Below are positions 1 through 19,143 of a DNA stretch of 64,000 nt, piece after piece. The DNA is from Candidatus Fermentibacterota bacterium (lineage in GTDB: Bacteria > Fermentibacterota > Fermentibacteria > Fermentibacterales > JCC-6): the NCBI GenBank assembly GCA_963845085.1, contig CAWJQI010000001.1:96001-160000 (forward strand), read 5' to 3'. Each line of letters starts with the position of its first letter. The first letter of the stretch is position 1. Made by a program: the position numbers and the translations under genes. The notes under the pieces were generated by a model. The model saw nothing but the letters and a program-made list of their open reading frames with translations. It did not search any database and had not been told where the DNA came from.

Positions 1-3000
1 CTGCCAAGCGCAACCGTCCGGCCGGTCGTGGGCGGGGCCACGCGCGCATCATGGCCTGCGCTTCTGGCGACGGCCGCCGCGAGGTAACTGGCATCACTGA
101 GATAGGGTATCCAGAGAGTCCTGCCCCCGAGCGATTGTTCCAAGGGAGGGCATGGAGCGGGCTCCTCCCCACGCATAGGTCTTTCCGCCTCAAGGGAGTC
201 AAGAAAGGCCTCGCACCTGGTGATGATCCCGGCATCGGCCGCGTGCTCGTCTATCTCGATGCCGAGATGCGGCTTGTCCCCCATGATCTCCGAGAAGATG
301 TGCTCGATGAAGCTGTCGGGACCGCAGCCGAAATTGGATATGTAGACCGCGTTGAGGCGGTCGTCGTCACGGACGGCCATGGCCGCGGCAAGGATCTTCT
401 GGCCGTATGCCCAGTACATGTTCCTGTGCTTCTTCCAGACCTTCTCCATCGGAAGGTCGAGGAAATCCATCGGGATCACGAGCGCACCGAGCCTGGCAAG
501 CTTCTGGGGAAGATCGGTGTTGACCATGGGATCGTTCCCGTTGTAGGGCCTGCTCACGACGACGAAGGCGCGCCTTTCCCCGATCGAAGCCAACGCTTTC
601 TCGCCCTCTTTCAGAAGGGCTTTCCTGAACCTTTCCTGAGCGGAGACAGCCTTCCGGCCCGCCTTTGAAACTGCTTCAGCGGAGAAACCGAGCCCCTTCG
701 CCATCTCGACAAGGGGCATCATCCACTGCCTTCCGGGCAGGCTGAAGTCGAGAACGGGCCTGAGCGTTGTTGGTCTGGTCCTCTCCTTCAGCGACAGCCC
801 GGCGTCGAGCAGGTACGGGGCCGCCTCGACGAAGGGACAGTTGTAACTCTCCGTGAACTCCCCCGCAGCCGGCGCATTCCGAAGGATGCTGGGGATGAAC
901 AGGTGGTCGACCTCCATCTCGAGAAGCCTTGCCACGTGACCATGGGCTATCTTCACGGGAAAACACGTTTCGGCCGCCATGCTCTCGACCCCCCGGTGAA
1001 CCGTGGCCGAATCGGACTGCCCGCTCGTGACGACGCGGCACCCGAGTTCCCTGAAGAACGTGCCGAAGAACGGGTACAGCTCCCAGAACCACAGGGCTTC
1101 GGGTATCCCAACGACAGGTCCGTTGGGTTCAAGGCCGGATTCCTCCGCGAACTCCCTGAGAAGCTGCTCCCTGCGGGGGAAAAGGTTCTCGCCCCCTGCC
1201 GTGGTCTGGAGGCTTCCCGTCTCGTATTTCTCGCACCTTCCTCCGTAGAACAGCTTTCTGCCGTCCTGCAGAGTGACACGATGAATCTCGCAGCTGTTCG
1301 AGCAGGCCCTGCAGACGAAGCTGTCCTGCTGCCAGCTCTCGCCGGTGAGCGCGAAGCCGCGGAACAATGTTGCGGAGGGGTTCATGTCCCGCACGAGAAG
1401 CGCCGCCCCGATGGCACCCGTGACGTCGTGATGCGGTGGAACAATGACAGTCCTGTCTCCGAGAACCGCGTTGAAGGCGGCCACGACCCCCTGGTTGAAG
1501 GCTGTGCCCCCCTGGAAGAATATCTTCCTGCCGATCGGGCGCCTTCCCACGACCCGGTGCAGGTAGTTCCTGACGACAGAAACACAGAGGCCGGCCACGA
1601 TGTCGCGAAGCGGAACCCCGTCGGACTGGTGGCTGACCACATCGGTTTCCATGAAGACGGTGCAGCGTTCGCCGAGCCTTGCCGGTGCGAGGGATTCGAG
1701 TGCAAGCGGCCCGAAATCCGTGATGGGGATGCCGAGCTTTTCCGCCTGTTCCTCGAGGAAGCTGCCCGTGCCGGCGGCGCAGACCTTGTTCATCTCGAAA
1801 TCGACGACGCGGCCGTTTCGAAGGGAGATGAACTTCGAGTCCTGCCCGCCTATCTCGAACACGGTCTCAACGCCGGGATCAATGTGCAGCGCGGCGCGGG
1901 CCTGTGCCGTTATCTCGTTCCGTACCGTGTCGGCGCCCACGAAATCACCGGTCATGTACCTGCCGCTGCCTGTTGTGGCAACTCCGAGAACCTCAGGTTC
2001 GCACCCGAGGTCGGACCTGATCTCAAGAAGCCCGTCCCTCACGGCCTCGAGAGGCCGCCCTGCCGTGCGCAGGTAGACCCTGGCGACCACATTGCCATCG
2101 GGATCGACCGCGGCAAGGTTGGTGCTTATCGAACCGACATCGATGCCAAGGTATATCCCACTGCCGGCCGAGCCTGAGCAGTCGTGCCGTGCCGGCGGAA
2201 GCGCATGTGCCGCAAGGGGCTGAAGGTGCTCACCGGCATGCCCGGTCGCCTCCGAAGCGGCTTCTTCCAACGATCCCGGGGTGACATGCACGGGTTCCTT
2301 CATCGAAAGCGCGGCCCCGGCCGCCACGAGTATCTTGAAGTGATCCGGGACGAAGAGCTGCCTTCCGTCGACAGCCTCACGGAATGCCCGGATCATCGCC
2401 TGGTTGGCCGCGACTCCGCCGACAAAGGCGACGGGTCCCCGGAATTCCCTGCCTGCGGCAATGGTGCTTCTGAAGTTCCTCGCGACGGCGAAGCAGAGCC
2501 CGGCTGCTATCTCCTCGACGGTTGCGCCGATCTGCTGGAGGTGGATCATGTCGCTTTTTGCAAAGACGCTGCAGCGGCCGGCGATCCTGGGAGGCTTCCT
2601 GCACCCCTGGGCGAGTTCCCCCATCTCCTCCGGGGACAGACCGAGCCTCGCAGCCTGCTGGTCAAGAAAGCTTCCTGTGCCCGCAGCGCAGATCGTGTTG
2701 GTAGCAAAATCGTCGAAGACGGGACCTTCGCCGCCGTCATGACGGAACTGGAGCAGCTTCGAGTCCTGCCCCCCCATCTCCACAACACTGCCCGCACCGG
2801 GAACGAAGGCCTTCACCGCAGCGGCAAGTGCAACCACCTCGTTGACCGGGTCAACACCCAGGGCACGGGCGAGCCTCATGGCTCCGCTTCCTGTAAGGGC
2901 TGCCGGCATGGAACTCCACCCCGGGACCTGCCCGAGAAGGATGGAGAGGGCTCCAAGGGGATCACCCCTGTGCCTGGCGTATCCCTCCTGAATTATCGAT

Positions 3001-3068
3001 CCGCGTTCAAGCACGGCGAACTTCGCGCTCACCGAGCCGAGGTCGATGCCGATGACCCGGCTGTTCAT
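1..3068 (-). CDS. Acyl-CoA dehydratase activase (two BadF/BadG/BcrA/BcrD ASKHA ATPase domains plus DUF2229-like region); 3' end lies outside the window
   Basis: Read by hand on the minus strand. ATG at 3068 follows a GGAGG RBS: MNSRVIGIDLGSVSAKFA. A second ATPase start YLGIDVGSISTN lies near 2150, followed by YNCPFVEAAPY, VGRPYN, MYWAYGQKIL, NFGCGPDSF and DEH. The + ORFs 51-668, 903-2177 and 2184-3089 are all its antisense shadow in one frame. It is probably absent from the track because no stop falls inside the window. Confidence 0.9.
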   Translation of the reverse strand, partial: MNSRVIGIDLGSVSAKFAVLERGSIIQEGYARHRGDPLGALSILLGQVPGWSSMPAALTGSGAMRLARALGVDPVNEVVALAAAVKAFVPGAGSVVEMGGQDSKLLQFRHDGGEGPVFDDFATNTICAAGTGSFLDQQAARLGLSPEEMGELAQGCRKPPRIAGRCSVFAKSDMIHLQQIGATVEEIAAGLCFAVARNFRSTIAAGREFRGPVAFVGGVAANQAMIRAFREAVDGRQLFVPDHFKILVAAGAALSMKEPVHVTPGSLEEAASEATGHAGEHLQPLAAHALPPARHDCSGSAGSGIYLGIDVGSISTNLAAVDPDGNVVARVYLRTAGRPLEAVRDGLLEIRSDLGCEPEVLGVATTGSGRYMTGDFVGADTVRNEITAQARAALHIDPGVETVFEIGGQDSKFISLRNGRVVDFEMNKVCAAGTGSFLEEQAEKLGIPITDFGPLALESLAPARLGERCTVFMETDVVSHQSDGVPLRDIVAGLCVSVVRNYLHRVVGRRPIGRKIFFQGGTAFNQGVVAAFNAVLGDRTVIVPPHHDVTGAIGAALLVRDMNPSATLFRGFALTGESWQQDSFVCRACSNSCEIHRVTLQDGRKLFYGGRCEKYETGSLQTTAGGENLFPRREQLLREFAEESGLEPNGPVVGIPEALWFWELYPFFGTFFRELGCRVVTSGQSDSATVHRGVESMAAETCFPVKIAHGHVARLLEMEVDHLFIPSILRNAPAAGEFTESYNCPFVEAAPYLLDAGLSLKERTRPTTLRPVLDFSLPGRQWMMPLVEMAKGLGFSAEAVSKAGRKAVSAQERFRKALLKEGEKALASIGERRAFVVVSRPYNGNDPMVNTDLPQKLARLGALVIPMDFLDLPMEKVWKKHRNMYWAYGQKILAAAMAVRDDDRLNAVYISNFGCGPDSFIEHIFSEIMGDKPHLGIEIDEHAADAGIITRCEAFLDSLEAERPMRGEEPAPCPPLEQSLGGRTLWIPYLSDASYLAAAVARSAGHDARVAPPTTGRTVALG

Positions 3069-3225
3069 TGTGCCTCCAAGGGAAGATGAGAGGTGCAAAT
3101 ATACCTTTGGGAGCCTTTCCGACGCTACCGGCCCGTGAACCGCTGCGCAGCGTTGTCGGGGCAATGGCCGGCTGCGCTTTTTACCTTATAGTTGGAGGTG
3201 GCTCAAACCTGGGAGGGCGGGCGCA

Positions 3226-4923
3226 ATGGGCGGAGAATCAGACAGGCCGGTCATTTATGGATCGGGCGGCATCGGGGGAAAAGCCTCGGGCCTTTTTTTT
3301 GCCATGAAAACCCTTGCCGAATCGAATCCGGAGATCGGCTCCCCCCTGGTCCCTACGTTCGTGCCTTCCTTCCGGGTGATCACAACCGAGTACTTCGATG
3401 ATTTCCTCAAGAGGAACGACCTTCCCGGCGACAGCGTGGGCGACGAGCCTGACGACAGGATCGCGGCGGCATTCATGAAGGGCGAGATCTCCCCGATCCT
3501 GGTGGGCGACCTGATGAACTACATGAGGGAAACGCGAAGCCCCGTCGCCGTGCGTTCCTCCAGCCTTCTCGAGGACGCGAGGAATGAGCCGTTCGCAGGC
3601 ATCTACCAGACAAAGATGATCCCGAACAACCAGCCCTCCGACACGGAGCGGTTCAGGAAGCTCACCGAGGCGATCAAGTTCGTCTGGGCTTCCACGTTCT
3701 TCCAGGCCGCGAGGGATTACCTCGGCGCCACGGGCCACACCCCGGCCGACGAGAAGATGGCCGTCATCCTGCAGGATGTTGTGGGCTGCCGTTTCGATGA
3801 AAGGTTCTACCCCGTCATCTCGGGGGTGTGCCGCTCGTTCAATTACTACGCCTTCGGAAGGGCGAAGCCCGCAGACGGCGTGGTCAACCTTGCGCTCGGG
3901 CTTGGAAAATCCATCGTCGAGGGCGACCCCGTCTGGAGCTACAGCCCGGCTCATCCCCGCGTTCATCCCCCATACGGCAACCTGAAGGATCTGATGAAGA
4001 TGACCCAGACCTCCTTCTGGGCCGTGAACATGGGAAGGCCCCCGGCCTACGACCCCCTCCTCGAGACCGAGTACATGCTGAAGTGCCCGCTCTCCGACGC
4101 CGATTACGACAACACGCTTCGTCTTGTCGCTTCCACATACGATCCGTCATCGGACCGGCTGGTTCACGGTGTACAGGAGCAGGGAGCAAGGGTAGTAACC
4201 TTCGACCCGCTTCTGCGGGACTCGATGGTGCCGCTGAACGATGTTCTGAGAAACCTCATGAAACTCTGCGAGGAAAAGTCGGGCTCTCCCGTCGAGATCG
4301 AGTTCGCCGTGGAGGGGTACACTCCGGGCTCGCCATCGAGGCTCGGCTTCCTTCAGGTGCGGCCGATCGTTGCAACCGACAGTGTGGTGAACATTTCCGC
4401 CGATGAGGAAAAGGGGGGGGCGCTTCTCGTAAAAAGCGCAAAGGCAATGGGCAACGGGGAAAGGCGCGACATCAGGTGCATCGTCTACATGAAGCCGGGA
4501 TCATTCGACGCCTCGAAGACGCCCCTCATCGCAAGGCAGATATCCGAGATCAACCGCTCGCTCGTCCGGGATGAGATGCCCTACCTGCTGATGGGCTTCG
4601 GCAGATGGGGAAGCTCTGACCCCTGGCTGGGCGTCGGCGTGACATGGGGGCAGATCTCGGGCGCCAGGGTGATGGTAGAGATCAGCGGTGGAAAGATGAA
4701 GGTAGACCTTAGCCAGGGCTCCCATTTCTTCCACAATCTCACAAGCTTCGGCGTCACCTACTTTTCCGTGAGTGAGGCCGTTGACGGCAGGATCGACTGG
4801 GACTGGCTCGAAACAGCGGGCGAAACAGTCTCGGAAACCGAGTTCCTCAGATGCATTACCTTGAAGGAACCCCTATTGGTCAAGATAGACGGACGATTGG
4901 GAAAGGGCGTGATTCTCAAATGA
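3226..4923 (+). CDS. PEP/pyruvate-binding (PPDK_N ATP-grasp) domain protein
   Basis: Motifs IGGKASGL, AVRSSSLLED, FAGIY, GLGK, VEIEFA and LQVRP. C-terminal GFGRWGSSDPWLG...SQGSHFFHNL. Confidence 0.88.
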   Translation: MGGESDRPVIYGSGGIGGKASGLFFAMKTLAESNPEIGSPLVPTFVPSFRVITTEYFDDFLKRNDLPGDSVGDEPDDRIAAAFMKGEISPILVGDLMNYMRETRSPVAVRSSSLLEDARNEPFAGIYQTKMIPNNQPSDTERFRKLTEAIKFVWASTFFQAARDYLGATGHTPADEKMAVILQDVVGCRFDERFYPVISGVCRSFNYYAFGRAKPADGVVNLALGLGKSIVEGDPVWSYSPAHPRVHPPYGNLKDLMKMTQTSFWAVNMGRPPAYDPLLETEYMLKCPLSDADYDNTLRLVASTYDPSSDRLVHGVQEQGARVVTFDPLLRDSMVPLNDVLRNLMKLCEEKSGSPVEIEFAVEGYTPGSPSRLGFLQVRPIVATDSVVNISADEEKGGALLVKSAKAMGNGERRDIRCIVYMKPGSFDASKTPLIARQISEINRSLVRDEMPYLLMGFGRWGSSDPWLGVGVTWGQISGARVMVEISGGKMKVDLSQGSHFFHNLTSFGVTYFSVSEAVDGRIDWDWLETAGETVSETEFLRCITLKEPLLVKIDGRLGKGVILK

Positions 4924-7900
4924 CTGACGAAGCCTCCCGCTCTCAGAGCCTGATCACCTCCCTCAGGGAGAGGGCCAAGGAATTGAGCTGCCTCTACAGG
5001 GTGGATGAGATCCTCCTTTCGCCGGAAACCCTCGACAACAAGCTCCACCAGGCTGCCGAAGCGATCCCGAGCGGATGGTTCAGCCCTGAACTGTGCGAGG
5101 CGAGGATCCGCTACATGGGAATGACATACCAGTCCAAGGGTTTCAGGGAGGGCGGCGTGTACCTCACCGAAGACCTCAATGTTCAGGGCAACACCGTTGG
5201 CACGCTGACCGTCTCATACCCTCTGGAAGCGCCCGGAATGGACGGCGGTCCCTTCCTGCCCGAGGAGAAAAAGCTTATCCGCACTCTCAGCCAGCGCCTG
5301 TCGCACACCATTCTCCATGAAAACCTCGCCCAGGTGTTCCAGGGGGAGGAGAACGCAAGCAGGACCTGGAGGGCGGGCACCGAATCATGGCGCTCCATAC
5401 TGGAGATGCTTTTCATAACGGACAGAAAGCTCTACAAGACGCTGTGCAGAAGGCTTCTCAACTACCTCAACTTCATCGGCGTCCCCCAGGCGCAGGACCT
5501 GCTGAACAAATGGGTGGGGCAGACATCCGACGGCACCGAGCCTGATCACGAGGGCATCAACCAGCCCATCCCGAAACACATGATCGACATCAACCCGAAG
5601 ATCGTCGAGGAGATACTCGAGATCACAAGCTCGGTTCTCTCCGACGACCAGCTCATGAAGCTTCTTCAGCGCTGGGTCGGAGAAAACCGGATCGAGCACT
5701 TCATCAACGTGCTTGACGACCACGCCAGCGCAATCAGCGAGATCATCCAGGCAATGGATTCCCACAAGACGATAGTGACGGAGGAACTCGCCCTCTCGCC
5801 CCCGGTCCTCAACGCGGTGAAGGTTTCCCTGATCAGGCGGTTCATCAGCAGAAGGCTTGACTACATCAGCACGCTGAAGGACTACGTAACCCTGAACGAC
5901 TTCTACGAACTGAGCAGGTACCTTGTATTCCCGGCCCGCAGCCACGGCCAGCTCGGGGGGAAGGGTGCGGGCATCTTCCTCGCGGGCCAGATCCTGAAGC
6001 ACGTGACCCAGGACGATCCGGTCCTGAGCAGCATAAAGACTCCGAAAACATGGTACATCTGCTCCGACGGCATACTCGACTTTGTTCACTGCAACAGGCT
6101 TGAAGAGCTTCTTGAATACCGCTACAGGTACATCGAGGAGATCAGGATGGAGTACCCAAACCTGATCCAGCTCTTCAAGAACTGCGCGTTCAGCCCGGAG
6201 ATGATGCAGGGGCTTTCCATGGCCCTCGACGACCTGGGCGAGAAACCCCTGATCGTAAGAAGCTCGAGCCTGCTCGAGGACAGCAGCGAGGCCGCCTTCA
6301 GCGGAAAGTACAAGAGCCTCTTCCTTGCCAATCAGGGCACGAAGAAGGAGAGGCTGGAAGCTCTCACAGACGCCATCAGCGAGGTCTACGCCTCGATGTT
6401 CGGCCCCGACCCGATCGAGTACCGCGGGGAAAGGAAGCTCCTCGATTTCCAGGAGGAGATGGGCATCCTGATCCAGGAGGTCGTCGGCGCCCACATGGGT
6501 GATTACTTCGCACCCGCCTTCGGCGGGGTGGCATTCAGCCGCAACGAGTTCCGGTGGTCGAGCCGCATCAAGACCAACGACGGCCTGGTCAGAATGGTGC
6601 CGGGTCTTGGAACCAGGGCTGTCGACCGTCTCGGCGACGACTACCCGATACTGCTCGCCCCCGGTCAGCCCGGTCTGAGGGTCAACACGTCCATCGACGA
6701 AACCATTCGCTACGCCCCGAAATACATGGACGTCATCAACCTGAAGAAGCGCCGCATCGAAACGGTGAGTGTCGAGGACATGATCAAGGCGTACGGGAGC
6801 AGCTATCCCCAGTACGAGAAGGTCTTCTCCGTATTCCGCGACGGAATGCTCCACCAGGTGAACCCGATGACCGACTACGAAAAGGATTTCGTTCTCCCGA
6901 CCTTCGAGGGGCTGATGGGCGGCAGCGACTTCGTTCCGATGATGAGGCGGCTTCTGACGCTCCTCGAGCAGCGGTGCGGCTTCCCCGTAGACATCGAGTT
7001 CGCGGTTGACGACACAAGCGTCTACCTTCTTCAGTGCAGGGCCCAGAGTTCGTGGCAGAAGGAGGAGAACATCCAGCTCCCCGAGCGGCCGTCATCGGAA
7101 AACCTTCTGTTCACCGCCGAGAAGTTCGTCTCGGACGGTCTTGTTCCGGCTGTCACTCATGTCGTCTACGTAGTTCCCGAGGCGTACGACAACCTGAAGG
7201 ACATGAACTCGCTCATCAACGTGGGCAGGATGGTCGGCCGGCTGAACGGCATTCTCCCCCGCGGAAGGTTCGTGCTGATGGGACCGGGGCGCTGGGGCAG
7301 CAGGGGCGACGTCAAACTGGGCGTCAGGGTGACCTACTCCGACATAAACAACACGGCGGCGCTGATCGAAATGGCCTTCCGAAAGGGCAACTACGTCCCG
7401 GACCTCTCCTTCGGCACCCACTTCTTCCAGGACCTTGTCGAGGCTTCGATCCGCTACCTTCCCCTCTACCCCGACGATGACGGTATCGTGTTCAACAGGG
7501 CCTTCTTCGAGAACAGCGAGAACTCCCTCGAGAAAATCCTTCCGGAAGCATCAGGGCTGTCGGACGTGATCAGGGTCATCGACATCCCTGCCGTAACCAA
7601 CGGAAGGTTTTTGCGCATAGCGATGAGCGGCGACGAGGGAAGGGCGATGGCCTATCTCGTGACCGAGGAAACCGCATCGGCGCCCGAAGCCCTCAGAAAG
7701 ATTGCGGGAAGGGAGGCCGACCGAATCAGCGAGGACGAGCACTGGATCTGGCGGCAGACAATGGCCGAGAAACTTGCGTCCTCCATCGATCCCGAGCAGT
7801 ACGGGGTCAAGGGGGCATACCTCTTCGGCAGCACCAAGAACGCCACGGCCGGCCCGTGCAGCGACATAGACCTTCTGATCCACATCACCGGAACTGACAC

Positions 7901-8144
7901 GCAGAAGAAGCTTCTGATGGCATATCTGAACGGCTGGGACCTCTGCCTTAGCGAGATGAACTACATCCGCACCGGCATAAAGACCAAGGGCATCCTCGAT
8001 GTTCACATAATCACCGACGAGGACATCGAGCGAAAGAACTCCTACGCTTCCAGGATAGGCGCCGTGACCGACCCCGCGAGACCTCTGGACATGATGAAGA
8101 GCAGGAGGACGCCGACCAAAGCCCCGGTCATACCAGCTCCCTGA
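4920..8144 (+). CDS. GAF-like / PPDK_N / nucleotidyltransferase multidomain protein
   Basis: ATGA overlap with the upstream stop. N-terminal LRERAKELSCLY...GPFLPEE (GAF-like). Core LGGKGAG, IVRSSSLLED, FSGKY, GLGTRAV, DIEFA, LQCR, GPGRWGS, SFGTHFFQDL. C-terminal YLFGSTK...SDIDLL matches the Pol-beta-like NTase GS..DxD motif. Confidence 0.88.
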   Translation: MTDEASRSQSLITSLRERAKELSCLYRVDEILLSPETLDNKLHQAAEAIPSGWFSPELCEARIRYMGMTYQSKGFREGGVYLTEDLNVQGNTVGTLTVSYPLEAPGMDGGPFLPEEKKLIRTLSQRLSHTILHENLAQVFQGEENASRTWRAGTESWRSILEMLFITDRKLYKTLCRRLLNYLNFIGVPQAQDLLNKWVGQTSDGTEPDHEGINQPIPKHMIDINPKIVEEILEITSSVLSDDQLMKLLQRWVGENRIEHFINVLDDHASAISEIIQAMDSHKTIVTEELALSPPVLNAVKVSLIRRFISRRLDYISTLKDYVTLNDFYELSRYLVFPARSHGQLGGKGAGIFLAGQILKHVTQDDPVLSSIKTPKTWYICSDGILDFVHCNRLEELLEYRYRYIEEIRMEYPNLIQLFKNCAFSPEMMQGLSMALDDLGEKPLIVRSSSLLEDSSEAAFSGKYKSLFLANQGTKKERLEALTDAISEVYASMFGPDPIEYRGERKLLDFQEEMGILIQEVVGAHMGDYFAPAFGGVAFSRNEFRWSSRIKTNDGLVRMVPGLGTRAVDRLGDDYPILLAPGQPGLRVNTSIDETIRYAPKYMDVINLKKRRIETVSVEDMIKAYGSSYPQYEKVFSVFRDGMLHQVNPMTDYEKDFVLPTFEGLMGGSDFVPMMRRLLTLLEQRCGFPVDIEFAVDDTSVYLLQCRAQSSWQKEENIQLPERPSSENLLFTAEKFVSDGLVPAVTHVVYVVPEAYDNLKDMNSLINVGRMVGRLNGILPRGRFVLMGPGRWGSRGDVKLGVRVTYSDINNTAALIEMAFRKGNYVPDLSFGTHFFQDLVEASIRYLPLYPDDDGIVFNRAFFENSENSLEKILPEASGLSDVIRVIDIPAVTNGRFLRIAMSGDEGRAMAYLVTEETASAPEALRKIAGREADRISEDEHWIWRQTMAEKLASSIDPEQYGVKGAYLFGSTKNATAGPCSDIDLLIHITGTDTQKKLLMAYLNGWDLCLSEMNYIRTGIKTKGILDVHIITDEDIERKNSYASRIGAVTDPARPLDMMKSRRTPTKAPVIPAP

Positions 8145-8991
8145 CGGCCCGGGCCGAATCGTGCGGATCGAACCTCACAAGGGCCAGTTCCGGCCCGTCG
8201 TGAGCAGCGTTGATCATCACGGTCGGCCCGCATGTCTCCATCCACATTCCGGTCAGCGAAGCAGATTCATGGATGTGGCCGTGAAGGGTCAGCATGGGGG
8301 CCCTTTTCATGATGAAGCGTTTTATTGCAATGCTTCCGACATGCACGTCGAGCGGCACGAAATCAACGAATTTCCCGTCCAGGGCAGCCCTGTCGAGCGC
8401 GGTTCGGTAGGGAGGCGAATGGAAGAGGAAGACCGCCTTTGAAAGGTCATCGCTCCCTGCGAGTTCCGCAAGGTCTTCCTGTATCGTTGCATAGCATGAT
8501 TCATACTCGGAGACCGGCACGGTGAACATTCCTTCACCGGGGTGGGTGCACCCCGGATCAACGAAGCGCGAGACATCGTAGCGTTCCCAGTCCTTCAGGA
8601 GGAACGGGCTTGGAGGGATGAACGAATAGCCGTAGACCATGAATTCCCCGAAGGGGATCTTCCTGCCGTGGGCGTACTCCCAGATGCCCCTCGAGGCGGC
8701 GTCGAGCACCGCCGCTTCCTGAAAGCGGCCGTCATCGTTCCCGAGTATGACGAACACCCTGGGATACCGCTCCCCCATGCGCTCTTTCATGGCTTCAAGC
8801 CTGCGGCACAGGAACTCGTTAACGAAATCGCGATGATCGGCGCGCGCTTCGAGCAGCCTGACCGCGCCCGGAAGAAGATCCCCGCCGATGAACAGCGCCG
8901 CAGGACGCTCGGTCTCGACAAGCCCGAAGAGCTTTTCGTATCGGGCCGTATCACCGTGGAGGTCGGTTGCGAAGAAACAATTCCCGTTCAT
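8128..8991 (-). CDS. Metallophosphoesterase (calcineurin-like/Icc-related)
   Basis: Motifs TDLHG, GGDL, GNDD, HSPP and HGHIHE. Confidence 0.9.
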   Translation of the reverse strand: MNGNCFFATDLHGDTARYEKLFGLVETERPAALFIGGDLLPGAVRLLEARADHRDFVNEFLCRRLEAMKERMGERYPRVFVILGNDDGRFQEAAVLDAASRGIWEYAHGRKIPFGEFMVYGYSFIPPSPFLLKDWERYDVSRFVDPGCTHPGEGMFTVPVSEYESCYATIQEDLAELAGSDDLSKAVFLFHSPPYRTALDRAALDGKFVDFVPLDVHVGSIAIKRFIMKRAPMLTLHGHIHESASLTGMWMETCGPTVMINAAHDGPELALVRFDPHDSARAVRELV

Positions 8992-9006
8992 GGGGGGGAA
9001 GATATG

Positions 9007-9030
9007 AAAAGGGGGGTCCGAAGACCCCCC
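9007..9030 (-). terminator. Intrinsic terminator downstream of gdh
   Basis: Minus strand reads GGGGGGTC-TTCG-GACCCCCC-TTTT (8 bp stem, UUCG loop, U-tract). Confidence 0.8.
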
Positions 9031-9046
9031 TCGAAGGCAACAGGGC

Positions 9047-10333
9047 TCAGATCCAGCCCCGCACCCTGCAGGCCTCGACCACGCGGCTGACGCTGATCAT
9101 GTAGGCGGCGTCGCGCATGTAGAGTTTCTGCTTCCGGGCGAGTTCGCTCACTGCGAGGAACGCGTCCGTCATCTTGACGTCCAGTTTGCCGAGGACTTCG
9201 TCCTTGGGCCAGAAGTAGTTCATGTTGCACTGGACCTGCTCGAAGTAGCTGCAGGTGACTCCGCCTGCGTTGGCAAGGAAGTCGGGGATGAGGAAGATGC
9301 CCTTTTCCTGGATGACCTTGTCGGCTTCGGGGGTCGTGGGGCCGTTGGCGCCTTCGGCGATGAGCCTGACGCGGGGCGAGATCCTTCCGACGTTGTCTTT
9401 GTGGATCTGGTTCTCGAGGGCGCAGGGGAACAGGATGTCAACGTCCTGATCGATCCAGTTCTCACCCGGAAGAACTTCGTAGCCGATCTCCCTGGCCTTG
9501 TCCTTGTTTATGCCGCCGAACTTGTCGGTGATCGCGAGAAGAGCATCGATGTCGACGCCGTCCATCTTCCTGAAGGAGTAGGATGTCTGGTCGGTCTGGT
9601 CCCAGGAGCTGACGCAGATGACCTTGCCGCCGAGCTGCGTGTAGAGCCTGATGGCGTACTGGGCCACGTTGCCGAAGCCCTGAACGCTTGCCTTTGTGTC
9701 GGAGGGGCGGATGCCGAGTTCCTTGAGGGCTTCACGAACGGTGAATACGACACCGTAACCGGTGGCCTCGGTGCGGCCCAGGGAACCGCCCATGCCGACC
9801 GGCTTGCCCGTGATCATGCCGGGGTACTTCGCGCCGGTGATGACTTCGTACTCGTCCATCATCCAGAGCATGTGCTGGGCGTTGGTCATGACGTCGGGTG
9901 CGGGCACGTCCTGAAGCGGGCCGACGTTTCTGGCGATCTGACGGATGTAACCCCTGCAGATCCTTTCCTGTTCCCGCTGGCTGAGATCGTGGGGGTCGCA
10001 GATGACGCCGCCCTTGCCGCCGCCGAGGGGAATGTCGACCACCGAGCACTTCCATGTCATCCACATGGAGAGGGCTCTGACGGTGTCAACGGTTTCCATG
10101 GGGTGGAAGCGTATGCCGCCCTTGGCGGGGCCGCGGGAGTCGTTGTGCTGGCATCTGAAGGCCTTGAAGACCTTGACGGTTCCGTCATCCATGCGCACCG
10201 GGATGCTGAAATGGAATTCCCTCATGGGGAAGCGAAGGAAGTCCCGGGCGCCCTGATCCAGTTTGAGGTAATCAGCAACCTTGTCAAACTGCTCCTGTGC
10301 CATTTGGAACGCGTTGAAGGTTCCGGTTGACAT
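9047..10333 (-). CDS. gdhA: Glutamate dehydrogenase (Glu/Leu/Phe/Val dehydrogenase family)
   Basis: Motifs GPAKGGIRFHP, MTWKC, GGGKGG, DVPAPD, TGKP...GGSLGRTEATG, QGFGNV, EGANGP and NAGGV. Confidence 0.96.
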   Translation of the reverse strand: MSTGTFNAFQMAQEQFDKVADYLKLDQGARDFLRFPMREFHFSIPVRMDDGTVKVFKAFRCQHNDSRGPAKGGIRFHPMETVDTVRALSMWMTWKCSVVDIPLGGGKGGVICDPHDLSQREQERICRGYIRQIARNVGPLQDVPAPDVMTNAQHMLWMMDEYEVITGAKYPGMITGKPVGMGGSLGRTEATGYGVVFTVREALKELGIRPSDTKASVQGFGNVAQYAIRLYTQLGGKVICVSSWDQTDQTSYSFRKMDGVDIDALLAITDKFGGINKDKAREIGYEVLPGENWIDQDVDILFPCALENQIHKDNVGRISPRVRLIAEGANGPTTPEADKVIQEKGIFLIPDFLANAGGVTCSYFEQVQCNMNYFWPKDEVLGKLDVKMTDAFLAVSELARKQKLYMRDAAYMISVSRVVEACRVRGWI

Positions 10334-10918: not shown

Positions 10919-10996
10919 CTCCCTTCTGGAACGATATTCCCACGGAATGATAGTTGGAAGTATAATTCAATGTGTCGGTTCTCGGAAAGGAACGCA

Positions 10997-12970
10997 TTGA
11001 AGGCTGTCCTCATTCTCCTGCTGCTTGCAACAGCCCTGCCTGCAATCGGTTACGTGGGTCCGGGCGCCGGCTTCGGCATTGTGACAAGCCTGATGGTTTT
11101 CGTGAACGCCCTCGCGGTCTCCCTGATGTCGTTCCTTTTCTGGCCTGTGCTTGCGCTGGTTCGCAGGGCAAGGCAGCTGAGGCGACCCCTGAAGCCGAAG
11201 GCGAAAAGGCTTGTCATTCTGGGTCTCGACGGCCTTTCCCCCCTGCTTGTCGAGAAGATGTGGGAAAAGGGTGAACTCCCCAACCTGAAACGTCTCGCGG
11301 AAACCGGTGCATTCAGCCACCTCACCACCACCACTCCGGGTGTCTCCCCGGTGGCCTGGTCGAGCTTCCAGACCGGCGTCAACCCCGGCAAGCACGGCAT
11401 TTTCGATTTCCTTTCGCCCGACAGGAAACGCTACCTTGCAGTTCTCTCCTCGGTGCGGACCGTCACTGCAATGAAAAGGGGCTTCCTCGGCAGGAAGCGC
11501 CCGCACACCGTCCAGACCCTTTTAAGGAAAAGCAGGCCTTTCTGGAGCTACCTTGGAAAGTACGGCGTGAGATCCGCGGTGTTGAGGGTGCCCATCACAT
11601 TCCCCCCCGAACCGCTCGACGGACACCTGCTTTCCGGGATGTGCGTTCCGGATCTGAGGGGAAGCCAGGGTTCCTATACGGTGCTCACCGCCTCTGAACC
11701 GCTCGAAATGACGGGGGGTGTTCAAACCCGGCTCACGCCTGACGGCGAGAACCGCTGGAAGGGCGCCATACCGGGTCCCGAGGGTTCGCTTCCCTGCGAA
11801 GTCCGGCTCGACCTCGGCGGCAGGCACCCCAGGCTCCGCCTTCCCGGTGAGACGGTCAGGCTTTCCATGAACAGGCTGACCCCCTGGACCCAGCTCACAT
11901 TCAGACTGGGCGGCAGAAAGGTCCGGGGCATATCAAGGTTCATGCTCTCCGACGGACCGGTTCTCTACTGCAGCGCAATTCATGTCGATCCCTCGTCGCC
12001 GGCCGTTCCCCTGGGTCATCCCGTCCATTACTCCAGGTACCTGGCGGGAGTCGTGGGTCCCTATGCAACCCTCGGCCTTGCCGAGGATACATGGGCCCTG
12101 TCCAACGGCCATCTCGATGACGATTCCTTCATGACGCAGTGCACCGACATCTTCGGGGAAAGGGAGAGGATGTTCTTCGACGCCCTCTCCAAAAACCCCG
12201 CCGGTCTTGTTGTGTGCGTGTTCGACACACCCGACAGGGTGCAGCACATGTTCTGGGGAGACGGCTTCAGGGAAGGCTCCCCCATCAGGCGCATCTACGC
12301 CGAGATGGACGCCCTCGCCGGCAGGGTGATGAAAAAGCTGGGAAAGAACGACCGGCTGATCATCCTGAGCGACCATGGCTTCACCTCGTTCCACACATGT
12401 GTCGATTTCAACAGATGGCTCGTGCAGAACGGGTACATGACCCTCAAGGAAGGCGTTGAAACCGTCGGAACCTCCTTCAACGGGGTCGACTGGGAAAAGA
12501 CAAGGGCATACTCGATGGGTCTTTCCGGCATCAATATCAATCAGAGGGGCAGGGAAGCCCTGGGAACCGTCAGCCCGGAAGATTCCCCGGCCCTTGTCGC
12601 GGAGATAGCGGCCAGGCTCGAAAAGCTCGTGACAGACAAGGGCGAACGGGTCATACGAAGGGTCAGAACCGCAGCCACCGAGTACTCCGGACCCTACGCA
12701 GCCGACGGCCCCGACATAATCCCGGGCACTGCGAGGGGTTTCAGGGCGGGATGGAACTGCGTGACAGGCGGTGTGGGCAGGACCGTGATATCCCCGAACG
12801 AACACCACTGGAACGGCGACCACAGCTGCGACCCCGACCTCGTGAAGGGGGTTCTTTTCACAAGCTGGAAGCACCAGTGTGAATCCCCCTCCATTACGGA
12901 CATAGCACCCACGGCGCTTTCCATTCTCGGCGTTGCGCCCCCTCCTCACATGGACGGGAGCCCCCTGTGA
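10997..12970 (+). CDS. Alkaline phosphatase superfamily / type I phosphodiesterase-nucleotide pyrophosphatase, N-terminally membrane-anchored
   Basis: Motifs GLDG, PGVSPVAWSSFQTG, GKHGIFDF, DRVQH, SDHGF and WNGDH. TTG start follows AAAGGA; an alternative ATG is at 10970. Confidence 0.9.
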   Translation: MKAVLILLLLATALPAIGYVGPGAGFGIVTSLMVFVNALAVSLMSFLFWPVLALVRRARQLRRPLKPKAKRLVILGLDGLSPLLVEKMWEKGELPNLKRLAETGAFSHLTTTTPGVSPVAWSSFQTGVNPGKHGIFDFLSPDRKRYLAVLSSVRTVTAMKRGFLGRKRPHTVQTLLRKSRPFWSYLGKYGVRSAVLRVPITFPPEPLDGHLLSGMCVPDLRGSQGSYTVLTASEPLEMTGGVQTRLTPDGENRWKGAIPGPEGSLPCEVRLDLGGRHPRLRLPGETVRLSMNRLTPWTQLTFRLGGRKVRGISRFMLSDGPVLYCSAIHVDPSSPAVPLGHPVHYSRYLAGVVGPYATLGLAEDTWALSNGHLDDDSFMTQCTDIFGERERMFFDALSKNPAGLVVCVFDTPDRVQHMFWGDGFREGSPIRRIYAEMDALAGRVMKKLGKNDRLIILSDHGFTSFHTCVDFNRWLVQNGYMTLKEGVETVGTSFNGVDWEKTRAYSMGLSGININQRGREALGTVSPEDSPALVAEIAARLEKLVTDKGERVIRRVRTAATEYSGPYAADGPDIIPGTARGFRAGWNCVTGGVGRTVISPNEHHWNGDHSCDPDLVKGVLFTSWKHQCESPSITDIAPTALSILGVAPPPHMDGSPL

Positions 12971-14898
12971 ACCGGAGGGAGTTCCTCAAGACCGCCGCAG
13001 CGGGCTCGGCCCTCCTAGCACTGAGGGCCGGTTGCGGCGGCGGCGTCCTGCCGGGTGGAAAAAGGGTTCTCGTGGTTGCATTTGACGGCCTCGATCCCGG
13101 TCTGGTGGGAAGGTACGTTGCCGCTGGTCTCATGCCGAACACAAAAAGGCTGATCGAAATGGGCTCCCTGAGAAACCTCGCCACATCGAACCCGCCCCAG
13201 AGCCCGGTTGCCTGGTCCGGTTTCATCACCGGAAAGGGCCCCGACGTCCACGGCATATTCGACTTCGTGCAGAGAAACCCGGCGGACATGAAACCGTTCC
13301 TCTCCACCTCGAGGGTCAACCCCCCCGACAGGACGCTGAACGCAGGCAGCCTGAGGCTGCCGCTCTCCGGGGGCGGCGTGGAACTCCTGCGGCAGGGCGA
13401 TCCGTTCTGGAGGGGCATTCTGAACCAGGGCATACCGGTTACGATGATCAACCTTCCGGTTGACTTCCCCGCTCCGCAGGACCGCGGAGGTCGCTTCCTC
13501 TCGGGCATGGGCACGCCGGACATACAGGGAAGCCAGGGCAGCTTCACCTTCTACACCGACGACCCCAGGTCGCTCAGCGATGACACGGCAGGCGGAACCA
13601 TTGTCCCGGTCAGGGATTACGGCGACAATTGCTACAGGTGCAGGGTGGCGGGTCCGGCCAACTCCCTCATGGAGGGCGCCCCGATCATGGACACCACCGC
13701 CGAGGTCTGGGCCGACAGGGAGGCCGGAGCAGTGCGCATCGATGTGCAGGGCCGTTCCTTCGTGGTCGGTGAAAGGCAGTGGTCGCCGTGGGTTCGCTTC
13801 GCTTTCCCCGCAATACCGGGCATTTCTACGGTTCACGCCATCGGCAGGTTCTACCTCAAAGAGCTCTCCCCGAAACTCAAGCTCTACCTCTCCCCCCTCA
13901 ACATCGATCCGGAGAATCCCGCCCTTCCAATTTCGGGTCCCGACTGGTTTGCCAGAAGCATTGCCGAGAAAGTCGGGCTCTTCTACACGCAGGGTTTCCC
14001 GGAAGACACGAAGGCTCTCTCACGGGGCGTCTTCAACGACGACGACTACCACTCCCAGGCCGCCAACGTTTTCGACGAACGGCTCAGGATGTTCACAAGC
14101 GCGCTGAACGACTGGAACGACGGCCTGCTTTTCTTCTACTTCTCGTGCACCGACCTGAACCAGCACATGTTCTACCGCACCATCGAAACCGAGAGCCCCC
14201 TCTATTCATCAGTGGCCCCGCGGTTCAGGAACATCATGGGCGAGCTCTACGCAAAAGCCGACAGGGCGATCGGGCAGGCCATGGAGTTCATCGATTCCAC
14301 CACCGAGCTCATGATCATCTCCGACCACGGCTTCGCCCCGTTCAACAGGGGCTTCGGCCTCAACAGCTGGCTCGCCGCCGAGGGTTACGCCCACATCTCC
14401 ATTCCCGAGGACCGCAACAAGGACATGTTCGCCTGCCTTGACTGGAGCCGTACCGCCGCTTACGGCCTGGGTCTCAACGGCCTGTACATCAACCAGGCGG
14501 GCAGGGAGCCCGACGGCATTGTTACCGCCGATGAAAAGCCCTCCCTTCTTCAAAGGCTTGCAGCCGACCTCGAAAGGGCCGTCGACCCCATGAACGGACG
14601 GCGTCCGGTGGAAAAGGCCTATATCGTGAGCGAGCTCTTCCCCGGAGCCGTGATTCCCCCCTTCGCCCCCGACATTATCGTGGGCTACTCGAGGGGGTAC
14701 AGGTGCAGCTGGAAGACCGCACTCGGGGCATTTCCCGAAGAGGTCATAACCGACAACACCGATCCCTGGAGCGGCGATCATTGCATCGCCCCTAACCTCT
14801 GCCCCGGAAGCCTCCTGACAAGCACACCCATGCCCGGTGGTCTATCCCTGCTGGACATGGGCGGGGTGATCACCAGAACCCTCACGGGTGAAACATGA
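12967..14898 (+). CDS. Type I phosphodiesterase/nucleotide pyrophosphatase with twin-arginine signal
   Basis: MNRREFLK Tat motif. Core AFDG, PPQSPVAWSGFITG, HGIFDF, DLNQH, SDHGF and WSGDH. GTGA overlap with the upstream gene. Confidence 0.9.
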   Translation: MNRREFLKTAAAGSALLALRAGCGGGVLPGGKRVLVVAFDGLDPGLVGRYVAAGLMPNTKRLIEMGSLRNLATSNPPQSPVAWSGFITGKGPDVHGIFDFVQRNPADMKPFLSTSRVNPPDRTLNAGSLRLPLSGGGVELLRQGDPFWRGILNQGIPVTMINLPVDFPAPQDRGGRFLSGMGTPDIQGSQGSFTFYTDDPRSLSDDTAGGTIVPVRDYGDNCYRCRVAGPANSLMEGAPIMDTTAEVWADREAGAVRIDVQGRSFVVGERQWSPWVRFAFPAIPGISTVHAIGRFYLKELSPKLKLYLSPLNIDPENPALPISGPDWFARSIAEKVGLFYTQGFPEDTKALSRGVFNDDDYHSQAANVFDERLRMFTSALNDWNDGLLFFYFSCTDLNQHMFYRTIETESPLYSSVAPRFRNIMGELYAKADRAIGQAMEFIDSTTELMIISDHGFAPFNRGFGLNSWLAAEGYAHISIPEDRNKDMFACLDWSRTAAYGLGLNGLYINQAGREPDGIVTADEKPSLLQRLAADLERAVDPMNGRRPVEKAYIVSELFPGAVIPPFAPDIIVGYSRGYRCSWKTALGAFPEEVITDNTDPWSGDHCIAPNLCPGSLLTSTPMPGGLSLLDMGGVITRTLTGET

Positions 14899-15680
14899 CG
14901 CCCCTGTTCAACACCATCCTCTCCCCCCTGCGCGGCATGTACCCGTTCGCCGGCCTGCTCGCCGTCTCACTCGTGTTCGGGGTGTTCATGATCGTGGTTT
15001 TCAGGTTCACATCGGACCAGAAGGCCATCGGCAGGATAAGAAGACGGATGGGCGCAAGGGCCCTCGGCATGCTTCTTCACCTCCACTCCCCTCTCACCGT
15101 GCTGAAATCGGCAGCCGCCCTGATGGCCGACAATTTCGCATACCTCTGGCTGATCCTCAGACCCATGCTCGTGATGGCGATCCCGTTCCTCATCACCGCC
15201 GCACAGCTCGATGCAAGGTACGGCACCATGCCCATGCCGCGGGGAACCTCCACCACCGTCACGGTCACCTGGAACGAAATGCCCGCCAGGAACAGCCTGA
15301 CAATCGGTGGAACCGGCCTTTCCGTGATCGAGCCTGTCGTGTTCATCGACACACTCGGCGAGACGAGTTTCAGGGTTTCTTCGGGATTACCTGGTGCCGT
15401 CATAACCATCGGGGACGACTCATTCCCCGCGGGCGCCTCCGCGGAAGGTTCAGGCCGCATCATCTACCGGGGGGCAGCCCGCGGCGGCTTTCCCGGACGA
15501 CTCATGACGCCGTTCCTCTCCGGGATCGACGAGGGCAGCCCGGTCAGCGCGCTTCGGATCGACCTCGCCGAAGCCCGTTACAGGATCCTCGGCGGCAGAT
15601 GGAGCTGGCTCGGTGTATTCCTGTTCTACAGCAGCCTCTCCGCCATTGCGGGCGCAGCGGCTTTCAAGGTGAAGGTGTAA
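14895..15680 (+). CDS. Three-TM membrane protein, DUF106/EMC3/TMCO1-like
   Basis: TM1, then a basic helical loop (TSDQKAIGRIRRRM), then LRPMLVMAIPF (TM2), a soluble insert, and WSWLGVFLFYS (TM3). The family call is from pattern recognition only. Confidence 0.6.
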   Translation: MTPLFNTILSPLRGMYPFAGLLAVSLVFGVFMIVVFRFTSDQKAIGRIRRRMGARALGMLLHLHSPLTVLKSAAALMADNFAYLWLILRPMLVMAIPFLITAAQLDARYGTMPMPRGTSTTVTVTWNEMPARNSLTIGGTGLSVIEPVVFIDTLGETSFRVSSGLPGAVITIGDDSFPAGASAEGSGRIIYRGAARGGFPGRLMTPFLSGIDEGSPVSALRIDLAEARYRILGGRWSWLGVFLFYSSLSAIAGAAAFKVKV

Positions 15681-15997: not shown

Positions 15998-17356
15998 CTA
16001 TCTCAGAAGCAGAAGCTCTTCGCAGTCTGAGTTGGTGCAGGAAGTCAAGCGGACGAAATACAGCCCGGAAGGCAGCGGGTTCCCGGACTGGTCTGCAGCA
16101 TCCCAGAGCATTGACTGCATGCTTTCTCCGGCGTCAACAGACCATTCCCTCAGAATCCTTCCGGCAAGGTCGACAACAGCGAGCTCGGAGCCCGGCTGTC
16201 CCGTGAAAAACTCGATTCGAGCTGCCTGTGTTACGGGATTGGGCGTTATTGACCCGATGCGGAGGTTCCCGGGGCTGACCTGCACACCGGTCTCCCACGT
16301 TGAGACCGCTGGCTCCAGTCTGTTGAGAAAGGCATGTCCGCTACCATACCCTGCAATGATGTACCCGCCGTCACCGGTTTGTGCGATGTCGTGGGTGGCA
16401 CACCCGTCTGGTTCATACGTACCAACCCATTCAACAGTGCCGAGCGAATCGATTTTCATGACAATGACTACTCCATTGCCGCCGGCAACGATGAAGCCGC
16501 CGTCGATTGTCTGAATCAGTTCGCGTGCCGATTCTATTTCAGCGTAGCTGTGCTCCCATATGACATTGCCAAGGGAATCCGTCCTTACTACGTATGAACC
16601 GCCGCACATGATGAATCCGTTGTCGGAAGTTTCCTGAACAGCCTGAAAACGGCCGTATCCAAACGCCCTGCTCCAAAGCCAGTTGCCTGATGCATCAAGA
16701 CGGGCAAGAAGAAACTTGTCGCCCGTGGTGTAGGGAGTTGTTCCCATGTAGCCGACAGCTGCGTAACCATCGCCGCCTGCATGGCAGATCGAGAAGAATT
16801 CGTCGTTGTAGGCGCTGAAGATGATGGTTTTCTGGTACTGCAGCGCGCCGATGGCGTTGGTGAAAAAGATTGCGGCGTCGATATCCGGATTGGTGTTTGT
16901 GTGCCCGCGTCCTGCAACAGTGAAGCCTCCGTCACTGCGTTCAAGAAGGGAGGCTCCGGCCTCGAATAAATAGCCTCCGAATGCCCTGGTCCACAGAAGG
17001 GCTCCATCCGTCGAAACCTTCATGAGCAGAACATCCATGTTCGAGTTCACGTAGGTATAGCCAGTGGTCACGATGCACCCGTCGCCCGTGATAACGTGCT
17101 CGTAGGCAGTGTCATTACCCATCAGCCCAGATTGGCGGGTCCAGACAGTGGCGCCGTCGGCATCGATCCTCGCCACCAATGCATCGGTATTGCTGGCTTC
17201 GCCCAGGTCACCGCTTATGATATATTCCGACATGTAGCTGGTTACTGCCCTGAAACAACGATAGTTATGATAAACAATACTCCAGAGGCTTTCGGGTGGC
17301 TGTGCGCCAACCCTTGAACAGAATGCTGCGAGCAGCAACGGGATGAACGCCTTCAT
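15998..17356 (-). CDS. Secreted beta-propeller-like protein with FlgD-Ig/T9SS-type C-terminal domain
   Basis: Signal peptide MKAFIPLLL after a GGAGG RBS. Repeats D..G...W...G and DGG(F/Y)I.AG. Tail PNP...DLAGR...WD...SGLYFVRL. Confidence 0.8.
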   Translation of the reverse strand: MKAFIPLLLAAFCSRVGAQPPESLWSIVYHNYRCFRAVTSYMSEYIISGDLGEASNTDALVARIDADGATVWTRQSGLMGNDTAYEHVITGDGCIVTTGYTYVNSNMDVLLMKVSTDGALLWTRAFGGYLFEAGASLLERSDGGFTVAGRGHTNTNPDIDAAIFFTNAIGALQYQKTIIFSAYNDEFFSICHAGGDGYAAVGYMGTTPYTTGDKFLLARLDASGNWLWSRAFGYGRFQAVQETSDNGFIMCGGSYVVRTDSLGNVIWEHSYAEIESARELIQTIDGGFIVAGGNGVVIVMKIDSLGTVEWVGTYEPDGCATHDIAQTGDGGYIIAGYGSGHAFLNRLEPAVSTWETGVQVSPGNLRIGSITPNPVTQAARIEFFTGQPGSELAVVDLAGRILREWSVDAGESMQSMLWDAADQSGNPLPSGLYFVRLTSCTNSDCEELLLLR

Positions 17357-17460
17357 TGTGCCCCTCCCCTGAACAATAATGCCCAATCAGCATTCAATTC
17401 ATACAGCATTCCATTGTGATGTCAATCAGCGTAACGAATGTTAATCGCCCCCCCCACCCC

Positions 17461-18693: not shown

Positions 18694-19143
18694 TCTCTCC
18701 TCCTTCGGTACCAGTTCACCCACTGCCTGGTATTTGCCGCACCTGGAGCCGCAAGTCAAGAGCTCGCCGGGGGTCTCGGAACAGGGGGAACGCTCGTCAT
18801 CCCGTCGATGACGGGCTCGCTCCTGAAAGCCCGGATGAAACACAAAAGCTTACCCGCAGGAAGGTTTTCCCGGAGAATTGATATTGACCGCAGTGGCTCC
18901 GGGTGATAGTTTTCGGCTGCGATGTGCCTTTCGGGGTGCATCGCAGCCAAGTGTTCGAAAGAGAAGGTTTTGTCGAGGGGAAAGCTTTGTCATCGGACCT
19001 GGTTTCGTGTCAGGGCGGCAGGTTACGGTGATAACGGCGGATTCATGGTGAAAAAGGTGAAGCCCACCCCGGTATGACATGTCATGTTCTTATTACTCAA
19101 TAATGCCTTTGTTTCAAACCGCTTCATAATGAGAGGAAGCTCC

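Follow-up and report, generated by a model that had tools for sequence, protein, structure and literature searches.

Glutamine synthetase (GS) is governed by the nucleotidylation cascade of GlnE and GlnD, and for glutamate dehydrogenase (GDH), which stands at the carbon-nitrogen junction, reversible inactivation has been reported in Bacteroides fragilis. Trans-acting gene(s) downstream of gdhA of Bacteroides thetaiotaomicron reportedly affect GDH activity, as stated in the title of a 1996 paper by Baggio and Morrison, and a 3-kb downstream segment is said to be needed for activity. The closest precedent for the system described below is VadK (Rv1127c), which, according to the accessible parts of its description, is a truncated pyruvate phosphate dikinase (PPDK) without the pyruvate barrel that serves as a regulatory histidine (His) kinase, autophosphorylates on His422, binds enzymes encoded nearby and is proposed to regulate them by contact (PMC13400623). 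Here, we analysed positions 96,001 to 160,000 of contig CAWJQI010000001.1 of a Candidatus Fermentibacterota bacterium (64,000 nucleotides, referred to as the window; nearest named relatives Candidatus Fermentibacteraceae, 91-92% identity), in which two dikinase-related paralogues, A and B, are encoded next to a metallophosphoesterase, M, and a GDH. The A/B/M module is real and conserved and is not described in the literature searched, and the A/B family is tightly linked to one GDH subclade. Our preferred reading, to which we assign a probability of about 55%, is that A, B and M form a dikinase-derived, post-translational His-phosphotransfer regulator of GDH with a layer that writes and erases a nucleoside monophosphate (NMP). 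The literature search, in which the coverage of subscription papers was sparse, returned no description of the A/B family, and the accessible parts of PMC5552732, PMC12596196 and bioRxiv 10.1101/2023.05.11.540287 hold nothing on it.

Protein A (565 aa; 3226-4923, forward strand) consists of an ATP-grasp and a His domain only. Protein B (1074 aa; 4920-8144, forward strand) is translationally coupled to A via the ATGA at 4920-4923, which comprises the stop of A and the start of B and sets the latter at 4920, not 4851. M (287 aa; 8128-8991, reverse strand) is a calcineurin-like metallophosphoesterase, and gdh (428 aa; 9047-10333, reverse strand) encodes a family-II GDH of a distinct subclade travelling with B. 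M lies behind gdh on the same strand after a gap of 56 bp, and the 3' ends of B and M overlap by 17 bp. An earlier sequence-only reading of this region had listed the four genes, the coupling of A and B and the overlap of B with a convergent M behind gdh, all of which were found at the locus. A and B are 28% identical across 542 columns.

Gene order was followed in the 80 metagenome loci, out of 610, that ranked highest in similarity to A and are hence not a random set. B comes after A in 41 of 45 A-type loci when the listing is read by eye and in 30 of 42 under a stricter scripted rule; the remaining four of the 45 contigs stop just past A, and three short fragments were excluded. A GDH of the subclade is located at most 2 kb upstream in 23 of 25 of those metagenome loci. 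The usual arrangement is gdh > A > B < M, and in the bacterial family of the window organism gdh is shifted to the front of M; convergence of M with B is not universal, M running in the same direction in two loci (L250 and L268). Among the 120 best B homologues, 15 are A+B fusions of 1625-1655 aa. These fusions and the gene order in most A-type loci suggest that A and B work together.

In a FastTree phylogeny (154 of 242 cores kept, midpoint root), A nests as a receiver-less member within a lineage fused to receiver domains, and B forms the other main branch; by Pfam, neither A nor B contains a receiver domain. Local tandem duplication as the origin of the pair was ruled out because the tree assigns A and B to its two deepest lineages. 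The family is large, comprising 751 clusters (50% identity) at E <= 1e-30 against A, with members in every phylum sampled, and the module is conserved across many bacterial and archaeal lineages. A third paralogue of the same genome (L001:9223-12207, G000:C5; 994 aa) carries receiver domains, an ATP-grasp and a His domain; it is not located beside gdh in this genome, and its relatives usually flank a family-I GDH.

As judged from genes and models on the A/B side, VadK and the two proteins have in common an ATP-grasp and a His domain (in A and B a likely phospho-His swivel) without a pyruvate barrel, and a gene that adjoins metabolic enzymes proposed as targets. Unlike A and B, VadK descends from PPDK proper and, in the accessible parts of its description, acts on the methylcitrate cycle (PMC13400623). 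A and B differ from it in the ATP-grasp, which is of the phosphoenolpyruvate (PEP) synthase/rifampin phosphotransferase (RPH) type, in the GRWGS motif, in the fusions to GAF, receiver and nucleotidyltransferase (NTase) domains, in the occurrence as a paralogue pair, and in the phosphoesterase and GDH partners; their His domain has no significant profile match to that of PPDK, and A and B score at most 17 bits against PRK05878. RPH and PigC/RedH resemble A and B in a His domain that comes after the ATP-grasp without a barrel, and this group supplied the best ATP-grasp fold match of B (RPH, 5hv3, E 1.5e-14) as well as a top His-domain match (5hv1). They possess a small-molecule-binding domain of their own between the ATP-grasp and the His domain, whereas in the model of B the His domain follows directly, with no substrate-binding domain in between. 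PEP synthase and PPDK share with A and B a PPDK_N domain with conserved nucleotide-binding residues and probably a homologous swivel domain; A and B differ from them by the missing pyruvate-binding barrel, the missing GGxTSH motif and the gene context. As in the GlnE/GlnD system, a Pol-beta-type NTase is tied in the module to an enzyme of nitrogen metabolism, and there is a candidate for the removing activity. The module differs in that it has a minimal, MNT-like NTase joined to a dikinase core, in that its candidate eraser, a calcineurin-like esterase, is a protein of its own instead of an HD or second NTase domain, and in that it is linked to GDH in place of GS or PII. No Pfam or NCBIfam match to the GlnE/GlnD domain architecture was obtained for the module proteins, and the GS gene of the genome is on another contig than the module. 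By analogy, the module may work like VadK and borrow GlnE/GlnD logic while standing outside the PEP synthase, RPH and GlnE/GlnD families.

Linkage to GDH was determined in evenly drawn genomes of four other phyla, in which the family was present in 29/101, 41/81, 16/121 and 19/81 genomes; GDH was mapped in these 105 family-positive genomes, and five seed genomes were dropped, leaving 100. A GDH gene was found within 10 kb of 113 of 168 family members and in 71 of the 100 genomes, compared with a chance expectation of about 2.1 of 168, so that the enrichment of gdh near homologues expected in the sequence-only reading is strong. By type, the proportion was 41/54 for B-type members, 72/99 for A and receiver types and 0/15 for the rows classed as 'other/partial'. 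A GDH at least 57% identical to that of the window was present in 59 of 65 B loci, the six misses being mostly short contigs. In a tree of 194 GDHs, the window GDH belongs to a long-branch family-II subclade of 99 sequences (support 0.98). In the fetched DNA, a family member is located at most 4 kb from 91 of these 99, most of the loci having been fetched because of GDH linkage. The subclade is marked by an insertion around W244-D245 after the second Rossmann strand and by C126, W293 and C361, and it retains the usual catalytic motifs.

Among 81 Acidobacteriota genomes, B was present in 24 of 24 with the GDH subclade and in 3 of 57 without it; the negatives include an unpublished genome (G193). 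In 4 of 121 Bacillota genomes the subclade GDH occurs without any family member found, which is why a regulator fits better than an obligate subunit of GDH; the latter role was ruled out on these grounds. The GDH partners of receiver-fused members are of family I in 38 cases and of the subclade in 13, with none in 32, so that two unrelated GDH families are both partnered by the A/B family. A second GDH of the window genome, of family I (L002:6379-7809, G000:C5:936378-937808), lies directly upstream of a three-gene cluster which, from the N-terminal sequences, we take to be a HydABC/NuoEFG-type oxidoreductase. In relatives, family loci are flanked by similar clusters and by NfnAB-like or glnA-like genes.

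The ATP-grasp domains gave PPDK_N matches in Pfam (A, E 2.9e-34; B, E 4.5e-53). In A, the domain extends over residues 16-386 (3271-4383), with K19, R110, Q183, E357/E359 and Q377/R379 conserved, and in B over residues 343-708 (5946-7043). The lysine, the VRSS arginine, the glutamine, E/DxE and LQxR, which we take to correspond to catalytic positions of PPDK, are present in 89-90 of 90 B-type and 36-39 of 39 A-type proteins. Domain boundaries of B were taken from an AlphaFold model with a mean pLDDT of 82.9. Pfam returned neither a PEP-utilizers nor a barrel match for A or B, and the only barrel domain in the genome (88% complete) belongs to one complete PPDK; because of this, no free barrel is left for A or B, and a split PPDK was ruled out. 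Scores against the NCBIfam PEP_synth model were 25-46 bits for a cut-off of 740, those against RPH/PigC-type models 16-42 bits for cut-offs of 999-1700, and the top NCBIfam matches for A were PigC/RedH. The genome also encodes a 1427-aa PPDK_N protein with a canonical C-terminal GGxTSH swivel and no barrel (G000:C5:299853-304136, reverse strand).

The His domain occupies 4390-4920 in A (GRWGS, E485 and SQGSHFF, with the codon of H500 at 4723-4725) and residues 715-915 in B (7062-7664, with the codon of H834 at 7419-7421). Across 81 His-domain sequences, GRWGS, E and SxGxHFF show little or no variation, and the histidine is conserved in 90 of 90 B-type and 37 of 39 A-type proteins. Pfam gave no family common to the 81 members, and PDB sequence searches with A, M and the His domain found nothing past the ATP-grasp. 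Folded alone, the His domain of B reached a pLDDT of 93.8, and a VIA comparison of this model with 48,161 chains returned three phospho-His swivel domains as the best matches, namely the extra domain of pyruvate kinase (2e28; Z 5.6, root-mean-square deviation (rmsd) 3.1, 106 aligned), PPDK (2fm4; Z 5.5, rmsd 3.5, 115 aligned) and RPH (5hv1; Z 5.4, rmsd 3.7, 108 aligned), with maize PPDK at rank 6 and Enzyme I at rank 9. The weak Foldseek rows comprised RraA, PA, chaperonin-apical and LD-carboxypeptidase domains, which presumably share the swivelling fold. The histidine of the B model is placed at the N-terminus of a helix between two strands, like the phospho-His of PPDK. From the models, the HFF domain is most likely a strongly diverged phospho-His swivel, not a new fold.

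The NTase of B (7731-8087; residues 938-1056 in the model) is of a minimal Pol-beta type. It matched NTP_transf_2 above the cut-off (E 4.8e-05) and contains the GS motif, DxD and the third aspartate (G970-S971, D982, D984 and D1027, conserved in 87-90 of 90 B-type proteins, the acidic triad in 87-88); fold matches to MNT antitoxins were weak, and the closest matches were MNT-type protein adenylyltransferases. At the N-terminus of B, residues 1-146 (4920-5357) form a GAF-like domain, a likely sensor, followed by an all-helical domain (residues 155-332; 5382-5915) that is retained in short B forms without GAF and NTase. The GAF assignment is based on the model fold, a weak match to NifA-GAF (E 0.03) and a likeness to GAF-bearing His kinases; Pfam gave no GAF match for B itself. 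Classical His kinases with a GAF resembling that of B adjoin the same GDH subclade (L178:9912-11591, L045:5022-6869 and L215:13142-15277), and, going by this resemblance, they and B may sense the same ligand.

M contains all five metal motifs (DxH/GD/GN/H/GHxH) and, while giving no direct Pfam match, resembles Atlas clusters that are 89-97% PF00149 (cosine 0.98-0.99). With these results, most of the sequence-only assignments were upheld: PEP-synthase-type ATP-grasp motifs in both paralogues that are nevertheless not PEP synthases, a C-terminal GS..DxD NTase in the larger one, and a metallophosphoesterase. The GAF-like domain was upheld in part, being favoured by the model and the E 0.03 match and lacking Pfam recognition. 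The suggestion that the phospho-His swivel is missing is best abandoned: the canonical GG.TSH is indeed absent, but the domain itself is most likely present in diverged form.

The M subfamily is confined to B-positive genomes of the Acidobacteriota sample, where M was found in 13 of 81 genomes (13/27 B-positive versus 0/54 B-negative). Considering loci with enough flank, M adjoins NTase-bearing B in 30 of 54 cases. Of the 50 rows without NTase, nine of which are GAF His kinases that were included through similarity, M adjoins 2, and an NTase-bearing B that is adjacent or frameshifted accounts for both. M is found beside NTase-bearing B in 27 of 29 cases with A directly upstream and in 3 of 25 otherwise; in these three, A is encoded at another position of the locus. 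Since M tracks A, A would be the likeliest target of NMP transfer. In three genomes M is located away from B, once beside a stand-alone NTase copy. Such a B-type NTase (46% identity) is convergent with M and far from the B core of that genome in L232:6793-8530, suggesting from gene order that NTase and M can travel as a pair of their own.

A predicted complex of residues 336-915 of B with residues 9-427 of GDH scored 0.50, the best of three controls scoring 0.00; runs agreed in at least 75% of contacts, and the partner pLDDT was at least 88. In the benchmark, 116 of 157 solved pairs came up to the mark, as did 2 of 215 mismatched pairs; with scores of 0.60 or less, only 18 of the 157 solved pairs did so, together with both mismatches. 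Because contact was already likely from gene linkage, the docking raises the odds only modestly. The proposal in the sequence-only reading that GDH is acted upon thus gained a predicted contact, at a score that falls in the weak band.

In the preferred mechanism, A and B, as barrel-less PEP-synthase relatives, would cleave ATP in the manner of PEP synthase and load phosphate onto the conserved swivel histidine (H500 in A, H834 in B). The phospho-His domain would then swing to GDH and either phosphorylate it or bind it in a phosphorylation-dependent manner, as in the model proposed for VadK, and this contact would change the flux between glutamate and 2-oxoglutarate. A and B would act as one unit, possibly in opposite directions. 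The GAF of B would read a carbon/nitrogen signal, a role taken by the receiver domains in the sister lineage. An NMP would be attached by the NTase to one of the module proteins and taken off again by M, following GlnD/GlnE logic.

A probable relative by annotation offers an outside view. In the accessible parts of PMC8121099, BT1972 of B. thetaiotaomicron is annotated as PEP synthase/PPDK, and its number falls between those of the GDH genes BT1970 and BT1973; its top cofitness partners are korB (0.82) and korA (0.82), the only two listed, and korAB and BT1970 group with amino-acid biosynthesis genes (Table S3). This probably ties BT1972 to the supply of 2-oxoglutarate and glutamate, GDH not being named as a target in those parts.

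Several points weigh against the preferred regulator of GDH. No GDH lies within 10 kb of 55 of the 168 members, many of them on short contigs, and GDH is missing from the neighbourhood of a stand-alone clade of about 575 aa (within the 0/15 'other/partial' rows). Genomes inside a phylum are kin, so that the counts overstate independence. The score of B with GDH, as said, is in the weak band. For the swivel, all VIA Z values are below 8, a range where only a common arrangement may be reflected; Foldseek returned nothing for the His domain at E <= 0.001, HHalign against 121 canonical PPDK His domains was not significant (probability 0.6%), and the His-to-His equivalence with PPDK rests on secondary-structure order. 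Further, 22 NTase-bearing B loci, mostly of Syntrophomonadaceae, are without A and M and keep the NTase triad mostly intact. The decay of the NTase predicted where M is absent is therefore mostly not seen, so M is not an obligate eraser and an obligate writer/eraser pair was ruled out; of the writer and phosphoesterase eraser proposed in the sequence-only reading, there remains an M that tracks NTase-bearing B plus A, as expected of such a pair. Lastly, neither of the partners listed for BT1972 in the accessible parts of PMC8121099 is a GDH, and korAB groups there with general amino-acid auxotrophs.

A bolder form of the regulator, possible but on balance doubtful, would be a widespread, ancient two-layer covalent cascade on GDH in anaerobic bacteria and archaea, in which A and B phosphorylate GDH via the swivel phosphohistidine in opposite directions and are in turn switched, under control by the GAF, through nucleotidylation by the NTase of B and de-nucleotidylation by M. 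The cascade would be the GDH counterpart of GlnD/GlnE, and the family would be the trans-acting factor of Bacteroides GDH.

Alternatively, A and B could be metabolic enzymes coupled to GDH that phosphorylate a small molecule, GDH taking the place of the substrate-binding subunit that they lack. Small molecules are indeed the substrates of known PPDK-type enzymes in which the substrate domain is exchanged (RPH, PigC/RedH), mutants of BT1972 resemble those that have lost KorAB, which forms 2-oxoglutarate, the insertion of the linked GDH subclade is located at the cofactor-binding loop, and the weak docking signal fits equally. Candidate substrates would be 2-oxoglutarate, glutamate, an imine/carbinolamine intermediate or the nicotinamide cofactor, for instance in ATP-driven ammonia assimilation. 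We consider both the coupling and these substrates unlikely, given that the linked GDH keeps its catalytic motifs and stands without the family in the four Bacillota genomes, that fusions to sensors (GAF, receiver) and an NTase fit regulators better, and that two unrelated GDH families are both partnered.

The receiver domains of the sister lineage, the ED, D and K receiver motifs kept in the third paralogue and the GAF-bearing classical His kinases near the same GDH subclade in several loci would suit a non-canonical His kinase that passes phosphate to its own or other receiver domains and controls gdh expression or other targets. This is improbable for proteins that themselves have no receiver domain; the neighbourhoods that were read showed no conserved response regulator, and the specificity for a single GDH subclade speaks for contact between proteins. 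Equally improbable is a diffusible nucleotide signal, made by the NTase and destroyed by M, that acts allosterically on GDH or A/B without covalent protein modification. It would agree with the minimal NTase, with an M that is not always adjacent to B and with the fact that calcineurin-like esterases include nucleotide phosphodiesterases; the protein adenylyltransferases among the closest NTase matches, and an M that tracks the presence of A and not the NTase alone, argue against it. That A and B are ordinary or split PEP synthases or PPDKs, as PPDK_N matches and source names such as 'pyruvate, water dikinase' would have it, is hardly credible in view of the missing barrel, the low PEP_synth scores and the gene linkage to GDH.

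If the preferred regulator of GDH is correct, many anaerobes control nitrogen assimilation by a dikinase-derived type of kinase so far known only from VadK, and the old question of trans-acting gene(s) downstream of gdhA of B. thetaiotaomicron becomes testable. Database names such as PEP synthase and PPDK may lead metabolic reconstructions to wrongly credit genomes with extra gluconeogenic enzymes.

The stand-alone clade of about 575 aa (L118-L125) belongs to Bacillota and Thermoplasmatota. In two archaeal loci of this clade the next gene encodes a metallo-beta-lactamase-fold hydrolase (Pfam, L124), perhaps a different eraser or a substrate partner, as far as gene order suggests.

Divergent from A and separated from it by 61 bp is a gene for a 1408-aa CoA-activase-type protein with two BcrAD_BadFG domains and DUF2229 (window 3-3164, reverse strand; full gene G000:C1:94938-99164). 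The same arrangement is found in L003-L006, and a 40-41% identical homologue is located 2-4 kb from M in two Acidobacteriota (L233 and L234). This neighbour may point to a connection with glutamate fermentation and the activation of hydroxyacyl-CoA dehydratase. On the other side of gdh, 10970-15680 (forward strand) contains a membrane protein gene and a tandem pair of type-I phosphodiesterase/nucleotide pyrophosphatase genes, of which one encodes a Tat signal; linkage of these genes to the module was not seen in other loci. Further along, 15998-18843 (reverse strand) encodes two secreted proteins, one propeller-like and one with RCC1 repeats, which carry FlgD-Ig/Por-type C-terminal sorting tails.

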